Part shown: positions 8,912-31,282 of the stretch, in pieces
Layout: each line of letters begins with the position of its first letter
Position numbering within the stretch: position 1 is the stretch's first letter
Source: an uncultured Desulfosarcina sp.
Lineage (GTDB): Bacteria > Desulfobacterota > Desulfobacteria > Desulfobacterales > Desulfosarcinaceae
Direction of reading: 5' to 3'
Assembly: GCA_963674945.2 (NCBI GenBank)
Contig: CAXXWQ010000003.1
Coordinates: forward strand, 2,176,001 to 2,240,000
Length of the DNA stretch: 64,000 nucleotides
The notes under the pieces: model-generated
What the model saw: only the letters and a program-made list of their open reading frames with translations
What the model was told of the DNA's origin: nothing
The model's database searches: none
Made by a program: the position numbers and the translations under genes

Positions 8912-9712
8912 GTGTGCCGGGCACGGCACGTGTTCTTAAGGGTGCGATGGGCCAAGCATACCCTTTGTTCTATGGCTCATCAAGTCCCAAATCCAGGTCA
9001 TCGCCAATAAAGGCGCCTCCGGTGTCGATGGCATGACCACCAAGCAACTTAAGGGATACCTTAAGCGATACTGGTCCAAAATCAAGCAGGACCTGATAGA
9101 TGGGACCTACCGTCCCTTACCGTGAAGCTCAAGCTCAAGGTAAACGAAGAGAAAAGTGCAGTGAGTCGGCCGTGGCTACGCAAATTCCTGGGATTTACCT
9201 TCATCAGTATGTGCGGCCAGACCAAGATCCGGATTCACCAAAAGACCATATCACGCTTCAAGGACCGAGTCCGGGAATTGACTGACCGCAATTGCGGGAA
9301 AAGTCTGGACCAGATCATAAAGGGGCTGAATCAGTATCTCATCGGATGGTGGAATTATTATCGCCTGACGGAAGCGAGGTACATATTCAAATCCCTGAAA
9401 GTCTGGATCATCCGTAGATTGCGGTGCACCGTCTGGAAACAATGGAAAAACCGGAGGACCAGGGTCCGAAATCTGGAAAAACTTGGAATTTCTCATCGGA
9501 ATGCCATGCTATGCGGGAACGCCCGTAAAAAGTACTGGCGCATGAGTAAGGTCAAGTGGGTGGTATTTGCTCTATCCGATCGCTACTTCTTCGAACGAGG
9601 ACTGTTCCTGCCTGCTCAATAAACTTCCTGATCAGCCGAACCGCCTTGGTACGCGATCCGTATGCCGGGTGGTCTGGGAGGGGGTAGCCGTGAGGCTACT
9701 CCCTATCCCGAT
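8912..9712 (+). mobile_element. Group IIC-attC intron, internally deleted, both ends retained
   Basis: 5' GTGTGCCGGGCACGG; short IIC-type domain V GAACCGCC...GGTGGT; domain VI ending CCCTATCCCGAT; RT fragments match the 16010 copy. Confidence 0.92.
9122..9622 (+). pseudogene. ltrA: C-terminal fragment of the intron RT/maturase (RT7 + domain X)
   Basis: LKLKVNEEKSAV, KFLGFTF, LNQYLIGWWNYY, WIIRRLR...WKQWK. Confidence 0.88.
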
Positions 9713-9728
9713 TGAGATATCTCTGCTA

Positions 9729-10148
9729 TTAACCCTTTAATATTGAAACCTTGCTGCGTTTTGCAGCTGCCAATAAATTTTTATCAAGCGTGGCAATGGG
9801 CAATCCTTTTCTCATAGAGAGGTCCAAATATGAAGCATCGTAGCTTGACAGGTTATGCTGACGAGCTAATGCAAAAATTTCTTTAATCATCCTTTCTGGC
9901 GATTCTTGCTCTACAATTATTGGAAGTTCAGTAAGCAGGGCGATGAAACGTGTGCTATCCGCCTCACCTATTCGTTTTTTTCGCTCAGCCACTAATAATA
10001 CATTGGTAACTTCTAAAGGCCAAATAGATGGGACGAACGCGGTGGCGCTTTCAAGCCTATCTAGTATTAAATCAGTGTATTGACTGTCTTCATCCTTAAA
10101 ACACCACGTCATAACCACTGAATTGTCAACAACGAAATCATCGCTCAT
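9729..10148 (-). CDS. vapC: PIN-domain toxin (VapC family)
   Basis: FVVDNSVV, WPLEVTN, LSSYDASYL, ATLDKNL. Confidence 0.93.
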   Translation of the reverse strand: MSDDFVVDNSVVMTWCFKDEDSQYTDLILDRLESATAFVPSIWPLEVTNVLLVAERKKRIGEADSTRFIALLTELPIIVEQESPERMIKEIFALARQHNLSSYDASYLDLSMRKGLPIATLDKNLLAAAKRSKVSILKG

Positions 10149-10394
10149 TTATCGCCTTCCTTCTTCAATCATTTCGCGAATTGAAAGCCCTTTAAGGGTA
10201 TGTTTATCACGAAATTTTCGTATTTCAGCGATAACCTTGCTTGGTTCAGTCCTTTTTGAAGACATAGGTGGCTGCAGAACAGCAACTGGCACACCATGTT
10301 TTGTAATTGTTATCCGTTCGCCTTTGATTACACGCTCAAGCAATTTGGGTAAATGCGTTTTGGCTTCGTATGCACCAATGGTTTCCATAATCAA
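10149..10394 (-). CDS. Phd/YefM-family antitoxin
   Basis: IGAYEAKTHLPKLLERV..GERITITKHGVPVA; abuts vapC. Confidence 0.93.
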   Translation of the reverse strand: MIMETIGAYEAKTHLPKLLERVIKGERITITKHGVPVAVLQPPMSSKRTEPSKVIAEIRKFRDKHTLKGLSIREMIEEGRR

Positions 10395-10491: not shown

Positions 10492-10621
10492 GCCGAACGC
10501 TTCATTTCACCCGGGCGCAGGTATGGAATTTTAAGAGTTTTGAGATGGAAAAAGCATCAATGAAACTACGATTTTTAGAAATGCCACGCCCCCTGCGCTC
10601 GGGTGAAATTGTTTGTTGAAC
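10492..10621 (-). other. attC site (long)
   Basis: GCCGAAC...ATTTCACCCGGGCGCAGG / CCTGCGCTCGGGTGAAAT...GTTGAAC. Confidence 0.85.
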
Positions 10622-10714
10622 GAAGCCGCTAACGCGGCGGAAAAAAACTTCAAATCCTGTATACTTTCCGTAACCGTCCAATTTCGGACGATTATAACAC
10701 GAAGGGAGTATACC

Positions 10715-11342
10715 ATGGACAAGAAAGAAACCAAACGATTCGACAAACTGTATCAGCGTCATTTGCAAATGCTCAATCTCCAGGGCAAGAGCGAAAAGAC
10801 CCGGGAGGCATACGCAAGATCCGTCCGGCGGTTGCGGGATCATTTCGATTGCTGCCCGGACAAGCTCACTCCCAAGCAATTGGAATCCTATTTCGCCCAA
10901 CTTGTGGAAACCCATTCCTGGAGCACGGTTAAACTCGATTGCTATGGGTTCAAATTCTTTTGGAAGTTCGTGCTCGAAAAAGACATGCAATGGATCAATA
11001 TCGTTCATCCGAAATTATTGTTTCCAAACGTAAGCGGCCCCATTGATCGAATCAAATATGCAAAAAATCATATGGATATGGGCGGCACGCAAAAGGCCAT
11101 GAAAGTGGTTGTACAGGAATGCGGCATTAAAAAAAGCCTCCATCCATTCGCTTCGCCACAGCTATGCCACCCATCTTCTGGAACGTGGCCTGAGCCTGCG
11201 TCATATCCAGCTCCTTTTGGGCCATGCCAACTCGAACACCACCGAACGATACACCCAACTCACCGAGATTTCCGAAAAAGATAGCATGTCCACCATCAAT
11301 TCCCTGGTCAACTCCATACATGTTGATTTCAAGAAGGTGTGA
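10715..11342 (+). pseudogene. Tyrosine recombinase with N-terminal SAM-like domain; internal deletion and frameshift in an A7 run (~11129-11135)
   Basis: LQGKSEKTREAYARSVR N-terminus; [22 protein letters not shown] in another frame; the catalytic Arg/Lys segment is missing between INIV and HPKLLFP. Confidence 0.85.
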
Positions 11343-11344
11343 TC

Positions 11345-12382
11345 ATGGAACTGGCCAAGATTTTCCATCAATACCGGCAACCCTTCATGCGTAAGTATGG
11401 AGACTTTCTTTCACACGATCAGGTCAAAGCCTTCAACAATATTTTGGAATGCAGGACCGTCGAATCCGGTGAAGTAGCGGTATCGTGTTCCAGTTGTTCT
11501 CACATCGAATGGAAGCCCTTGTCATGCGGAAATCGCAACTGCCCCAAATGTCAGAACCATAACGCATCCCAATGGATCGACCGTCAGATGAACATACTAT
11601 TGCCGGTGCGTTACTTCATGATCACATTTACCTTACCGTTTAAGTTTCAGGCATTGGCAGGGCGTTTGCCTAAACAAATCTACTCCTTGTTCTTTTTATG
11701 CGTTGCCGGCGTTCTCAAGGATTTCGCATCGAACCCCAAACACCTGGGGGCTGAAATCGGGATGACCATGGTGCTGCACACCAACAGTCGCAGTTTAGAT
11801 TACCATCCCCATATTCATGTGATCGTACCAGGCGGCGGCATCGTTCGTTCCAGAAAGCAGTGGAAAAAGAAAAAGGGGAAATATCTGTTTAAACAGGATA
11901 ACCTCGCCAATGTCTTTCGCGCTCGCTTTTTGACGGAGCTGAGAAAATGCGGTTTTTCCATTCCAACGGCCCCTTTCGAATGGATCGTCGACTGTCGGCA
12001 GGTCGGGAAAGGCGCCGGTGCCGTCAAATACCTTTCCAAGTATTTGTAAAAAGGCGTGATCAGCGAAAAGAACATCGTTGCAAACGAAAACGGCAAGGTC
12101 ACTTTTCGGTATATCGAAAGTGAGACCAAAACCGAAAAATACCGTGCTCTGCCCGGCGAGGATTTCATTTACCTGATTATACAGCATGTCCTCCCCAAGG
12201 GCTTTCGCAGAGTGCGAGATTACTGTTTCCTGCACGGCAATGCAAAAAAGCTCCTGTCGCTGGTCCAGCTGGTTTTGCATGTGGTTATTCAGGAAATTGG
12301 GCTTCGCGCTCGTCCGTCGTTCAAATGCTCCCGGTGCAAATCGCCGATGGTAGTCATCGGGTTTCGGTTAAGACCGGGATAA
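11345..12382 (+). pseudogene. IS91-family (Y2 HUH) rolling-circle transposase with a premature TAA at 12047-12049
   Basis: SCGNRNCPKCQ zinc motif, YHPHIHVIV (HUH), YLSKYL*, then HVLPKGFRRVRDY in the same frame. Confidence 0.92.
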
Positions 12383-12589
12383 CCGCCACATCGGCAAAGA
12401 ACTGCCGTTCATGGTAAATACAGGAGGACTTGCCGACCTTATGGAAAACATGGTTGACCATTATGCCTGTGCAAGGCAGTCGCACAAGTACGCCCAAAAA
12501 AAGCTTCGATTTTCAAAGAGCCGTATCTCCTACCTTCTCCCGAAATAGATATTTCCTTTATAAATAGATCATCCTTTAATATCGGGCTT

Positions 12590-12652
12590 GTTCAACAACC
12601 GGATAAGATCGTGGCTCGCTTCGCTCTCACGATCTATCCTTATTCGTTATGT
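12590..12652 (+). other. attC site with polarity opposite to the array
   Basis: GTTCAAC-AACC-GGATA[A]GATCGTG...CACGATCTATCC-TTATTC-GTTATGT; the extra base is on the left arm. Confidence 0.75.
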
Positions 12653-12660
12653 TCTTTTGT

Positions 12661-13197
12661 TTACCAATAAACGGGGTCATTGAATTCCTTAACGCACCCG
12701 GGTCGTTCATTAATAGTTGGAATTGGCTCTCCCGTTAAAGATTGGCCAAGCCAGCCAAAAGGCATTGAAAGCTTTAACGGAGCCTGAATTACATTTTCTG
12801 AAAGTACCTGAAATCCCACCTTTGAATAAAAGGATGGATCTCCATATGTGACAGCAACATTAACAGAGCGCTTTTTGAGCTCATTAAGCCCGTAATTGAT
12901 TAGCGCCTGTCCGATGCCTTTTCCCTGATATTCAGCGCTTACTGCAACTGGGGCAAGCATGTAAACCTGCGTAGGCTTACTAAACTGAAGGCGAGTGAAG
13001 AAAATAGAACTGATGAACGTTTCATTTTCATATACGCCGAAACAGATTATTTCCTGATCGTCGATGTTTGACGCCAACTGTGAAGAAAGGTTGCCAATCA
13101 ATTTTCCTTCCTTTTCACCCTCCGATGAAGTGAATACAGAAGTGAATAGATCTTCTACTTCTTTTTGTTTTGATTTGTCCAGAATTCGGTGAATCAT
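12661..13197 (-). CDS. GNAT-family N-acetyltransferase (YhbS-like) cassette
   Basis: LAPVAVSAEYQGKGIGQALI, TYGDPSFYSKVGF. Confidence 0.92.
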   Translation of the reverse strand: MIHRILDKSKQKEVEDLFTSVFTSSEGEKEGKLIGNLSSQLASNIDDQEIICFGVYENETFISSIFFTRLQFSKPTQVYMLAPVAVSAEYQGKGIGQALINYGLNELKKRSVNVAVTYGDPSFYSKVGFQVLSENVIQAPLKLSMPFGWLGQSLTGEPIPTINERPGCVKEFNDPVYW

Positions 13198-13229
13198 GCC
13201 TTACCTTTCAAGATTACTGCGCTTATCGC

Positions 13230-13995
13230 ATCGAGGTAGGATGGCCAGTTACCCGAACGCCCCCTCACAGATCCCTGCGTGCGGTTTTCCCGCACAAGGC
13301 TCTTCAGTATTGTTCGCTTCGTACGAAAGCAAGGTTAATCCCAGTATCCGATAATTCGGGGCTGCGGTATCAGGAACTGCTTTAGCAATTCTGAAAACCC
13401 GCTCCAATTTAGGCTTTTTCTCTGGCTTCGGCGATTGAGCCATTTAAAGACGATATTGATGGTATGATGATAGAAGGATTTTAGCATTTCCATATTGCCG
13501 GATACCCCGTAATAATTGAAATGGCCCTGCAATTTGCAGCGCAATGCCTCCATTATCTCCGTCGTACCGTCAAACCTATCTTTCTTCATCCACGCCTTGA
13601 TTGACGACAATGCCTGCCGAAACTTCTTTTTCGATGTTCGCATCTTCACCAGTGGCTTGCCTGTGCGGCTTCGACCCCAACGATATTCGAATCCGAGAAA
13701 GGTGAATGATTCACTATTTTCGGTTACAAAACGAGTAAATTTTATGGTTCGTGTCTTGTCCTGGGAAAGTTGTAAGTTGAACTTTCCCAGGCGACCGTCG
13801 ATGGAGCTTCGAACCTTCTGCAAGTCCCTGTGATACTGAAAACAACAGACGTAATCATCGGCAAACCGAATCAGCATAGCATCACCGTCACTGTTTGGCT
13901 TGACAACCTTTTCAAACCACAGATCCAGTGCATAGTGAAGATAAATATTGGCCAGTACCGCCGATACTACACCTCCCTGAGGTGTGCCGGTTACC
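13230..13995 (-). mobile_element. ltrA: 3' half of a second, non-IIC group II intron (RT4 to domain X, DV/DVI)
   Basis: GTPQGGVVSAVLANIYLHYALDLWF, RFADD, QGHFNYYG, WLNRRSQ; DV GAGCCTTGTGCGGGAAAACCGCACGCAGGGATC; ends CCTACCTCGAT at 13230. Confidence 0.92.
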
Positions 13996-14163
13996 GGAAC
14001 GAATTGTAGAACGAAGGAGCATGTTAAGAGCAATGAACCAGGTCATTGCCAACAAAGGCGCCGCCGGTGTCGATGGCATGACCACCAAGCAACTTAAGGG
14101 ATACCTTAAGCGACACTGGCCCAAAGTCAAGCAGGAGCTGATAGATGGGATCTATCGTCCCAA
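13989..14163 (+). mobile_element. Internal fragment of the group IIC-attC intron RT gene
   Basis: Near-identical to 16621-16795 (ERIVERRSMLRAMNQVIANKGAAGVDG...IYRP). Confidence 0.9.
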
Positions 14164-14522: not shown

Positions 14523-14595
14523 GCCCAACGCCGAATTCACTTGCTGGTGTGGAGCGGCAGCGGAACACCAGTCAGAGTGAAATGAGCGGTTATAC
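14523..14595 (-). other. attC site
   Basis: GCCCAAC...ATTCACTTGCTGGTGT / ACACCAGTCAGAGTGAAAT...GTTATAC. Confidence 0.92.
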
Positions 14596-14845: not shown

Positions 14846-15262
14846 ATGTCTAACTATATAGCCACCATTCACAAAAATGAAAAAAGCGATTTTGGTGTAT
14901 CGTTTCCCGATTTTCCTGGATGTATCACTGCAGGGAAAACCATCGATGAGGCCAAGGACATGGCTCACGAGGCCCTTACCTTCCATATCCAGGGTATGAT
15001 CGAAGATGGTGAAAAGTTACCCAATCCCTCCAAACTAGAAAAAATTATGAGTGACCCGGACTACTCTGGAACCGTTGCATTTCTTGTTGTTTCAATTCCT
15101 GATTTAAAGTCCCGAACAGTTCGCGTAAATATCACATTGCCGGAACTAACACTCAAGCAGATCGATGCTGCTGCGAAGAAAAAAGGTATGTCCAGATCAT
15201 CGTTTCTTGCCCGCGTAGCAAAAGATGCCATTCAACCCAATGCTTCTGGAGCTTCTGTATAG
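14846..15262 (+). CDS. hicB: HicB antitoxin with C-terminal RHH
   Basis: FGVSFPDFPGCITAGKTIDEA; RVNITLP...SRSSFL. Confidence 0.95.
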   Translation: MSNYIATIHKNEKSDFGVSFPDFPGCITAGKTIDEAKDMAHEALTFHIQGMIEDGEKLPNPSKLEKIMSDPDYSGTVAFLVVSIPDLKSRTVRVNITLPELTLKQIDAAAKKKGMSRSSFLARVAKDAIQPNASGASV

Positions 15263-28555: not shown

Positions 28556-29254
28556 TTACAGCAAAGTACTCTGAATACTAAAGGAGCCTTCTTTTGATCT
28601 GTATTCATCTTTTAACACTTCAAGAAACATTTCAGGTGATTCAAGCGCATCGTTAACAATGCCCAAATTTCTAAGCGATACATATAAAGCAGCAGAGTAT
28701 GCTTGGCAATTTATAGATTTTTTGGGATTAAATTCGATATCCGTAAACCCCTGATAGGAAATAATTTGATCAGCCAATTCTTCATTCTGATGCAATGCGT
28801 TAATATACAGCCAGTCATAAAAAAATGTTCTTGGTTTTAATGGAAATTCTTTGGAGAAAAACAAAAACTTTATTAGATTTCCGGATTCCTTAAGGCGCAT
28901 ATCCTTTTTGGCTTGAATAGAAGTTCCTTCTAATAAATCAATATAAGGTCCACCTTTATCAAATACCTTACTGCTTTGAAAAGCTGTTTCAACAGAGAAG
29001 GATTTTTGCTTTTTCTTTGTGGTTATCAATAAATTAAATGCGCTTAATTGAACGCCTATCTCAAATTCTGATTTGCTGGATATTTCAAGCACCGGGGATA
29101 TATTTAAAATGTTTAAGGCTTCATGAAGTGATGAAATTGATTTTTGCTTCTGGGATTTAGACATCCCAGGAAACCACTTAAACTCAATATACTTAACAAT
29201 AACTCCAGATGCGTCGGTCTTTGTTTTTGGAATGTAAACTGGACGTTTAGCCAT
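28556..29254 (-). CDS. DarT-associated NADAR-family antitoxin (DarG1-like)
   Basis: MAKRPVYIP, LEISSKS, LSAFNL, VETAFQSSKVF..GGPY, FYDWLYINAL, FTDIEFNPKKSINCQA; directly downstream of darT. Confidence 0.82.
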   Translation of the reverse strand: MAKRPVYIPKTKTDASGVIVKYIEFKWFPGMSKSQKQKSISSLHEALNILNISPVLEISSKSEFEIGVQLSAFNLLITTKKKQKSFSVETAFQSSKVFDKGGPYIDLLEGTSIQAKKDMRLKESGNLIKFLFFSKEFPLKPRTFFYDWLYINALHQNEELADQIISYQGFTDIEFNPKKSINCQAYSAALYVSLRNLGIVNDALESPEMFLEVLKDEYRSKEGSFSIQSTLL

Positions 29255-29273
29255 TATAAAACCTTATCATATA

Positions 29274-29936
29274 TCACGATTTATATAATCTGACATAATC
29301 GCGTGAACTAAAATAATTTTTGTTTAATATCGCTTTGATATTAGGATATTTAACTTTAAAATCACTCAGTAGTTTTTTATTTTCAAAAGCAATCCCTATT
29401 ATTTTATCTATAGGAATTATGTCGAAAACAAGTATCTCCGCCTGAGAATCAGTTGGATCAAAAGTTTTCAACTTTTTTTCAGTCCTTGTTTTTGGCTTAT
29501 TTTCAATGCCTAAAACTTCTATTAAAAAATCATCTTGTTCAAATTCTGCAAACATACTCTTAAAAGCGGATAGGGATTTCAAATCATCTTTTTGAATGCA
29601 TGACATTCTTGAATCCGCTGCATTATATTTGCAAAAAGCACATTCATATTCCCATAAAACACTCGAATGAATTGCCAGAACAGCCCATCCATCCGCTTTA
29701 GAGTTTATTCTATATCTGTAAAACATCTTGTAATTTGGAAATGCTATTGATAGAGAAACTGAATCCTGATGACCGTCCAGTCGTAATTCATCATTTATTG
29801 AAACTTCAAACGGCAAATCCTCGATCAGTATTTTTGGCAAAAGGCCATATTGGATTATACCCTCAATGTTTTCCCACCGAGTGAAATGAACAAGGTAAGG
29901 AATTTTTATTTCTTCTGAAAACTCTTTAATGCTCAT
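29274..29936 (-). CDS. darT: DarT-family DNA ADP-ribosyltransferase toxin (DUF4433)
   Basis: LVHFTR.EN...I..GLL, NDELRLDG, SLSIAFPNYKMFY, NAA, PTDSQAEILV. Confidence 0.85.
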   Translation of the reverse strand: MSIKEFSEEIKIPYLVHFTRWENIEGIIQYGLLPKILIEDLPFEVSINDELRLDGHQDSVSLSIAFPNYKMFYRYRINSKADGWAVLAIHSSVLWEYECAFCKYNAADSRMSCIQKDDLKSLSAFKSMFAEFEQDDFLIEVLGIENKPKTRTEKKLKTFDPTDSQAEILVFDIIPIDKIIGIAFENKKLLSDFKVKYPNIKAILNKNYFSSRDYVRLYKS

Positions 29937-30226: not shown

Positions 30227-31282
30227 TTGAAAGTTCCAACGATGGAGAGTGTTATGTTTACCAACACCGATTTACCCGATGGGCCTATGGGCGCAACAAA
30301 TGGAAAACAAACTACGAACAATCCACGTTTGCTCGATCGTGTACGAAACGTAATACGCTGTAAACACTATAGTATTCGCACAGAGCACAGCTACATCGAG
30401 TGGATCAAACGTTACATTTTTTTTCACGACAAACAGCACCCGGAAAATTTGAACGAAACGCACATCAGCGCATTTCTAACTCATCTGGCCGTCGAAAAAA
30501 AGGTTGCCAGTTCGACCCAAAATCAGGCGCTTTGTGCGCTTGTGTTCCTGTATCGCCAAGTACTGAACAAGGAGATGGGTGATTTCGAAAACCTTATTCG
30601 CGCCAAACGCCCTGCGAAATTGCCCGTCGTATTCACCCGGGATGAAGTCAGGAAGGTGTTGCTCCAGTTGGATGGGGTAAATTGGCTGATGGGTCAGATT
30701 CTTTACGGGGCTGGGCTCCGCGTCATGGAATGCGTTCGGTTGCGGGTGAAGGATATCGATTTCGGATACCGTCAAATTATCGTGCGTAACGGCAAGGGGA
30801 ATAAGGACAGGATTACGATGCTGCCGGATATTATTTCAGAGCAACTCCAACGTCACATGCAAAAAATCAAGATCATTCACGAAACTGACCTGAAAGCGGG
30901 TTTCGGATCGGTCTATCTTCCCTTTGCCTTGGAAAGAAAATACAAAAATGCCGACCGGAATTGGTCGTGGCAATATGTTTTCCCGGCTTCCCGTCGCTCA
31001 ATCGATCCTCGGTCTGGCGCTGAACGTCGTCATCATATCTCAGAATCCGTTCCCCAGCGTGCCATCAAAAAGGCCATCCGAAAAAGCGGAATCAGTAAGG
31101 CGGGAAGTTGTCACTCCCTTCGCCACAGCTTTGCGACACATCTTCTCGAATCGGGCTACGATATCAGAACGGTGCAGGATCTGTTGGGCCACAAGGACGT
31201 GTCCACCACCATGATCTACACCCATGTTCTCAACAGGGGAGGAAAGGGGGTGCAGAGCCCGGGGGATACATTATTTGCGTAG
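30227..31282 (+). CDS. intI: Integron integrase (probable start ATG 30254)
   Basis: [33 protein letters not shown], integron-specific [39 protein letters not shown]. Confidence 0.98.

Follow-up and report, generated by a model that had tools for sequence, protein, structure and literature searches.

Organisation of the locus

The window, the whole stretch of 64,000 nt analysed here (contig CAXXWQ010000003.1 of an uncultured Desulfosarcina sp., positions 2,176,001 to 2,240,000), holds a chromosomal integron whose cassettes run leftwards on the minus strand, as follows from the integrase gene on the plus strand at 30287–31279. Within the array lies a two-gene unit of opposite orientation, made up of a tyrosine recombinase gene and an IS91-family transposase gene and closed by an attC-like hairpin. 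Its features and those of its surroundings are as follows, slashes within motifs marking junctions or cuts.

8912–9712, plus strand: group II intron, shortened, at TTGT/T in the R'' box of another attC
10492–10617, minus strand: long host attC with R' GCCGAAC at 10492, arms, a 5-nt spacer and the shared GTT at 10615–10617; outside the element
10615–10640, plus strand: element left end; GTT/GAAC restores a box of R'' consensus; conserved in relatives
10715–11342, plus strand: tyrosine recombinase gene, broken (PF13495 and PF00589)
11129–11136, plus strand: A7G run where the family has its conserved frameshift site, most relatives having A8G or A9 there
11345–12382, plus strand: IS91-family Y2 HUH transposase gene (PF14319 and PF04986)
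12584–12648, plus strand: element right end, GGGCTT, GTTCAAC (R''-like), stem, TTATTC and GTT
12649–12652, minus strand: leftover of the split host R'' box (ATGT), judged by its sequence; the aadA1 attC is split likewise
12661–13197, minus strand: GNAT cassette gene, its end 12 nt away from the element
30287–31279, plus strand: host integron integrase IntI (TIGR02249, 470 against a cut-off of 265)

Both genes named in the preliminary description were borne out by their domains, whilst the overlap it reported exists only with a GTG start (11339) for the transposase, the ATG at 11345 lying 2 nt beyond the recombinase stop. The termini it had proposed, GTTGAAC at 10615 and GTTCAAC at 12590, are both present, as is a 63-nt attC-like terminal hairpin with an extra A on its left arm (12590–12652; stem 12601–12613/12628–12639), and the right arm is indeed the one with the extra bases in the array attCs at 14523, 17438, 19564 and 21288. 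On the bottom strand the left end reads GTTC adjoining a short palindrome (10625–10638), like the terIS of IS91. Compared with the intact relative L001 (2307 bp), the window copy has lost one A of an A8G run and 276 bp at 11004/11005, the deletion taking out the recombinase's first catalytic motifs, and its transposase gene has an internal TAA (12047–12049) directly past the YxxxY motif. Since it combines the A7G run, the deletion and the stop, the copy is dead either way; all three lesions claimed for it (deletion, frameshift and nonsense codon) were seen, although the frameshift site proved native to the family.

The two plus-strand group II introns of the window begin after TTGT (8912 and 16010), the first ending CCCGAT/TGAGAT, in agreement with the reported use of TTGT/T by the IIC introns, and an Rfam search returned group II intron domains only. 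A further intron remnant, on the minus strand and in cassette orientation, occupies 13225–14033 just upstream of the GNAT gene. The first cassette (28556–29936) is a DarT toxin and NADAR antitoxin pair, and other modules of the array include Phd-PIN (9729–10394), a HicB-type module (14846–15262) and several IS66 and other transposases. The search of the same genome for further full copies found none; a solo right-end remnant of 172 bp on contig C1 (G000:C1:364219-364390) is 92% identical to the window's end, and at G000:C4:3238211-3239478 a distant Y2-like fragment adjoins an IntI-like fragment with a stop.

Taken alone, the window reads symmetrically, and the unit could equally be an inverted cassette that owns the long attC at 10492, with the 12590 hairpin serving as the attC of the GNAT cassette; the minus-strand boxes GTTCAAC (10621–10615) and GTTGAAC (12596–12590) are indeed complementary, as a cassette's own boxes are. 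The long attC has no bulge of its own, so that its minus polarity is deduced from the array and from a contig C4 homologue, which has its extra base on the right arm and stands there without the element. No empty site for the GNAT cassette was found among 61 genomes, and the sole homologue spanning the 3' end of that cassette has, by eye, no attC there. A passive cassette is nevertheless a reading to which we assign next to no likelihood: a long-attC homologue free of the element exists, and in relatives, as set out below, the hairpin is retained by the element where the adjoining genes are unrelated, the left attC is a different one in each copy, and an attC is split in the aadA1 case. Flank comparison in relatives rules out an ordinary inverted cassette owning the 10492 attC.

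A mobile family with conserved ends

The closest named copies (83% transposase identity) are in records of Desulfosarcina and other Desulfobacterota. Over the loci collected we counted 78 distinct left and 91 distinct right junctions, with 49 copies two-ended, numbers that overstate independence because the loci are related; they include the unverified ATT left ends of L199, L203 and L219, which were left out of the attC scoring of 62 flanks below, and exclude many of 122 metagenome pattern matches, which were chance hits or members of a distant clade. The left end in relatives is GTTG(A/G)AC-GAAGCCGC..GCGGC, and the right end, GT(T/C)CAAC...TATCCTTATTC-GTT, is kept next to unrelated genes, also in Gammaproteobacterial relatives of about 47% transposase identity. 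Whether the hairpin would vary with the neighbouring cassette had been posed as a check, and across the 91 distinct right junctions, with their unrelated neighbour genes, it stays with the element. In Desulfobacterota and Gammaproteobacteria alike, hairpin and ends thus go with the element, the left-flank attC differing in every copy, and the 12590 hairpin is assigned to the element rather than to the neighbouring cassette because relatives keep it beside unrelated genes.

Intact copies measure 2.25–2.44 kb. One genome (G007) has four copies of 99–100% identity and another (G023) three identical copies at three different sites, from which it follows that the unit moves on its own. The unit at 10615–12648 is a decayed member of this mobile and widespread two-gene family. 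Among 73 element hairpins the extra base is A in 59, G in five, absent in three and not classed in six, and the spacers depart from the 5/6 pattern, the window site aligning best as 4/6 and the left spacer varying in length among relatives.

Several variants were met along the way. Short derivatives of 547–1755 bp (L255, L274, L090, L095, L069 and L185) retain both ends and are possible non-autonomous forms; of these, L274 and L090 occupy R'' boxes of attCs. At L009, L039, L045 and L053 the last 19, 6, 37 and 41 nt of the element, respectively, are repeated directly after the right-end GTT, which may reflect a replication step there. A symmetric site at L254:1495-1555 consists of two right arms of the element hairpin flanked by CCTAAC and GTTAGG, and resembles an attC derived from the end of the element. 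A distant soil clade (L197, L179, L186 and L148; about 33% identity) has the left palindrome and both genes in common with the family; its four elements have simple dyad ends with 5–6 nt spacers, no hairpin and a palindromic target, a layout like that of a recombinase core, in keeping with recombinase-type sites in the wider family. In a more distant relative on a Vibrio plasmid (L273:2069-4400) the element has its own hairpin and no left attC, and is followed by an arr gene in forward orientation, which may mean an insertion of attI type in the forward direction.

Target choice and orientation

Left flanks were scored where they extended over 100 nt or more, and 25/62 scored as a host attC (score of at least 8), as against 13/640 control GTT positions from the first locus set, in which 17/40 junctions pass. 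The expectation that the left flank is consistently a host attC ending in GTT therefore held in part, the 37/62 flanks below the score including some weak or half attCs and two intron ends. The extra bases of the 25 positive flanks lie on the inverse (right) arm in 24, on neither arm in one (the window) and on the forward (left) arm in none. On the other side, 47/79 right flanks (113/942 controls) have a gene that ends toward the element no more than 60 nt away, and nine of the 79 (274/942 controls) have one that starts away from it. Insertion mostly at GAAC or CAAG tetramers had been named as the outcome that would speak against attC targeting, and right flanks begin with GAAC in 0/91 and with CAAG in 2/91; the IS91 target tetramer is not used.

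The cleanest case is an intact relative of 2339 bp (L269) between aadA1 and qacEdelta1 in the class 1 integron of the E. coli plasmid RCS41_p. Against the empty site of plasmid R100, the 300 nt on its left align as far as the GTT of the aadA1 R'' box and the sequence on its right resumes at the next base (two mismatches in 300), so that the aadA1 attC is cleanly split; both flanks rejoin at a single GTT present at both ends of the element, for which a shared core and a fixed 3-bp repeat are indistinguishable. The record is the only one to span the junction among the 5000 best plasmid matches, and the element is absent from 5,426 complete E. coli genomes.

Targets extend beyond attCs, two of the G023 copies lying, by eye, inside coding sequence. 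T at −2 occurs in 23/25 attC-positive and in 23/25 attC-negative targets, and 12/25 of the attC-negative flanks resemble the L''-side profile above the 90th percentile of background, the attC-negative set (n = 25) having been chosen by eye and possibly including decayed attCs. Since hairpin-less flanks share T(−2) and the L''-side profile, the target appears to be a T-N-GTT core plus an arm resembling an L box, supplied by attC R'' halves; a full host hairpin is not required, as copies also lie inside genes at T-N-GTT. The proposal of insertion into the R'' boxes of host attCs thus stands for the scored attCs, inverse in 24/25, and has to be widened to genes. At the left junctions of L004 and L005 the 3' end of a group II intron abuts the element (CCCGAT/TGAAC), and the rebuilt R'' box accordingly appears to remain an intron target.

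The orientation bears on IntI, which the preliminary description had offered as a possible integrator. The element might make its own circle and leave host IntI to integrate the folded junction as a cassette attC, which would suit the attC layout, where the L''-like arm has an extra base (A in 59 and G in 5 of 73), the bottom-strand bias and the presence of IntI in 5/5 genomes checked. IntI, however, uses folded bottom strands and yields forward insertions, according to the accessible text of PMC8876359, whilst none of the 25 scored attC insertions is forward, both loci at which a full intI adjoins an end have the inverse orientation, and genes starting away from the element are scarcer than in controls (9/79 against 274/942); the spacers, moreover, depart from the usual 5/6 and 3/73 hairpins have no extra base. 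With no forward case among the 25, we judge host IntI decidedly unlikely as the integrator, though all five genomes checked do carry IntI and the element may yet depend on it.

Enzymes, predicted circle junction and proposed mechanism

The transposase scores 362 bits against the NF033538 cut-off of 125, and both the HUH and the YxxxY motif are kept in 39/42 full-length transposases. In intact-length relatives the recombinase keeps its catalytic Tyr in 41/42 and its R-K-H-R-H-Y motifs in 39–41/42. It is 28% identical to the host IntI, without the 28-residue insertion of the latter, which helps IntI handle folded attC; it reaches 141 bits against the TIGR02249 cut-off of 265, lies below every NCBIfam cut-off and has archaeal XerA as its nearest models and structures.

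Of the 42 relatives, 30 have the catalytic C-terminal half of the recombinase in the −1 frame, five have it in frame and two in the other frame, with five not called. The switch lies at the A8G or A9 run, in phase as A-AAA-AAG, a known slippery motif, and the in-frame copies have the run broken. The −1 frameshift site is therefore a conserved feature of the family and not only a lesion, a simple lesion being an insufficient account with the −1 frame in 30/42 relatives. No clear stimulatory hairpin was found downstream in six copies, a result compatible with both ribosomal frameshifting and transcriptional slippage.

The left 7-mer is complementary to the R''-like box of the hairpin in 41/49 two-ended copies: 26 pair GTTGAAC with GTTCAAC and 15 GTTGGAC with GTCCAAC, five are mismatched and three begin with A. 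The two boxes, about 2.3 kb apart, can pair only in a circle. GTTGGAC is always found with GTCCAAC, in five lineages, and GGAC arises about five times on a tree of 43 element interiors; junction pairing continues beyond the box, GGCTT with AAGCC. The right-end stem covaries too, 7/14 predicted pairs having two-sided changes among 66 right ends. The R-box mismatch, at five tips, is G.T on the bottom strand, with no case of the mirror image; the most variable stem pair is C-G in 27, T-A in 25, bottom-strand G.T in eight and bottom-strand A.C in none; and over the whole stem the bottom strand has 14 G.T against five A.C, a bias that is not absolute. These wobble patterns point to folding of the bottom strand, which is also the strand inserted by IS91 in the accessible text of PMC13181058. 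Folding of both strands, which had been called for, gave a mixed answer, with z scores of −2.3 (bottom) and −2.6 (top) for the window hairpin, a lower energy for the bottom strand in only 52/73 hairpins and a better fold of the top strand at the L269 junction (−20.1 against −17.6). No circle or end-to-start joint was found in assembled contigs, which drop rare forms, from five public runs (X1–X4 and X12); in X2 one mixed loose-end consensus at the right end resembled the left end, which a second look did not confirm. No RNA dataset is listed as carrying the element.

Our main reading, to which we give roughly even odds, is that the window holds a dead two-gene element that was inserted in inverse orientation at the GTT of an attC R'' box, that its HUH enzyme would release a bottom-strand circle and that its recombinase would join the folded junction to the target. 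It builds on the observed ends, target, orientation, mobility of relatives, conserved catalytic residues and conserved −1 site; the parts given to the two enzymes in excision and integration we infer. The HUH enzyme would start at the right end and copy out the bottom strand as far as the GTTC or GTCC and palindrome of the left end. The joined ends of the circle are predicted to fold on the bottom strand into an attC-like hairpin, and the recombinase would then exchange one strand at G/TT with the L''-spacer-R'' half of a host attC, reading a putative core T(−11)..A(−8)..T(−2)-N-GTT, common in attC R'' halves and occasional elsewhere. The left end would rebuild the host R'' box, so that cassette plus element would stay movable by IntI, and the frameshift probably rations active recombinase. 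Such a mechanism would account for the inverse orientation, the hairpin-less insertions and the rebuilt R'' box. Three right ends with GAT, GAT and GTC in place of GTT favour a crossover at G/TT; a left-end variant GAT in L221 would fit a cut after GTT and speak against G/TT. Also against the main reading are the recombinase's want of the 28-residue insertion of IntI and the five stem cells with A.C on the bottom strand.

The HUH transposase might instead excise and insert the element alone, with a bottom-strand cut immediately 5' of AAC (GTT/ on the top strand), a target shifted from the tetramer to T-N-GTT and the recombinase, or its short unshifted product, as an accessory or regulator like IS91 Orf121 or as a resolver of by-products. 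IS91 TnpA does insert bottom-strand circles unaided (accessible text of PMC13181058), the left-end GTTC or GTCC beside a palindrome is terIS-like, distant relatives retain GAAC whilst the three preceding bases vary, one left end is GAT, and direct translation in 30/42 relatives gives a product without HxxR and Tyr. We consider it a credible though rather unlikely account: it sits badly with the catalytic set kept in nearly all copies of the recombinase and with the three right-end variants, which at GTT positions 2–3 favour G/TT; the conserved target bases lie across the cut from the side of the IS91 tetramer; and the attC-shaped junction would be left without a reason. The reverse division of labour, in which the recombinase would both excise and insert the element by exchanging single strands, leaving the HUH protein only to replicate or resolve the intermediate, would find a parallel in the dyad ends with unlike spacers of the soil clade, which resemble one-strand-exchange systems (strand-biased elements, in the accessible text of PMC9345347), and T-N-GTT is common to both junctions; we regard it as very doubtful, the terIS-like GTTC and palindrome kept at the left end suggesting HUH cleavage there.

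The main reading has a bolder form, which we offer tentatively and hold to be somewhat short of an even chance. Here the element would be a self-mobile cassette whose HUH enzyme makes single-stranded DNA and whose IntI-like recombinase, lacking the insertion, joins the folded junction to half-sites of attC. This would amount to a minimal, IntI-independent form of cassette recombination, would seed attC-like sites (L254) and may reflect an origin of folded att sites from dyad cores like those of the soil clade.

Significance and relation to known systems

Its proteins place the element among the IS91 members that have an upstream recombinase, a group that in ISfinder includes ISShvi3, ISWz1, ISSod25, ISSde12 and ISAzo26. 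In the open full-text literature that was searched, we found no description of attC R'' targeting by such elements. The accessible text of PMC9229058, PMC13181058, PMC9345347, PMC7923331, PMC8876359, PMC11322121 and PMC9751785 does not describe end complementarity, inverse orientation, an element-borne hairpin or the frameshift in recombinase-bearing IS91 elements; the nearest precedent there is one sentence on ISShvi3 beside an attC (PMC9229058, whose Figure S2 may bear on targeting).

Integron arrays are known to be entered at attCs by IIC introns and IS1111-type elements, and the element family would be a third route, one that employs an attC mimic of its own and the chemistry of single-stranded DNA. 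An E. coli IncC plasmid already carries a member in a class 1 resistance integron, with aadA1 parted from its attC, so that the element can change cassette excision, and integron annotation can miscount it as a cassette or an attC. The element bears on the role of the upstream recombinase in these IS91 elements and on how a recombinase without the IntI insertion might use a folded single-stranded site, and its ends and target rule define a small substrate for recombinase studies.

With the IS91 family (IS91, IS801, IS1294 and IS1294b) the element shares the Y2 HUH transposase, above the NF033538 cut-off, and, as far as the accessible text of PMC13181058 goes, a palindrome beside GTTC or GTCC upstream of tnpA (here a putative terIS), an upstream ORF abutting tnpA and a bottom strand that is likely the active one. 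It differs in that its upstream ORF is a tyrosine recombinase, its target is T-N-GTT, mostly in attC R'', rather than the CTTG/GTTC of IS91, and it closes downstream in an attC-like hairpin that is complementary to its upstream end. The recombinase-bearing members such as ISShvi3 and ISWz1 have the two-gene layout in common with it, and of the Myroides plasmid copies, which the literature calls ISWz1, one follows an attC-like hairpin and lies inverse to aadS.

The likeness to an integron cassette and its attC lies in the R''-L''-L'-R' layout with an extra base, the shared GTT crossover triplet and the bottom-strand bias. The element has complementary R'' and R' boxes (41/49) and an L''/L' stem with an extrahelical base on L'', but neither the canonical 5/6-nt spacers of attCs nor, in the 25 scored attC insertions, the forward insertion at attI or attC R' that marks cassettes; unlike a cassette it encodes its own enzymes and inserts inversely at R''. 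Its recombinase shares PF13495 with IntI, yet falls below the TIGR02249 cut-off and lacks the IntI-specific insertion.

Closest in target are the group IIC-attC introns, which insert inversely into the R'' box at TTGT/T (accessible text of PMC7923331), and the IS1111-attC elements, the target of both lying within one base of the element's crossover. Both differ from the element in their chemistry, which is RNA and reverse transcriptase based or of IS110 type, and they have neither the recombinase-HUH pair nor an attC-like end of their own.
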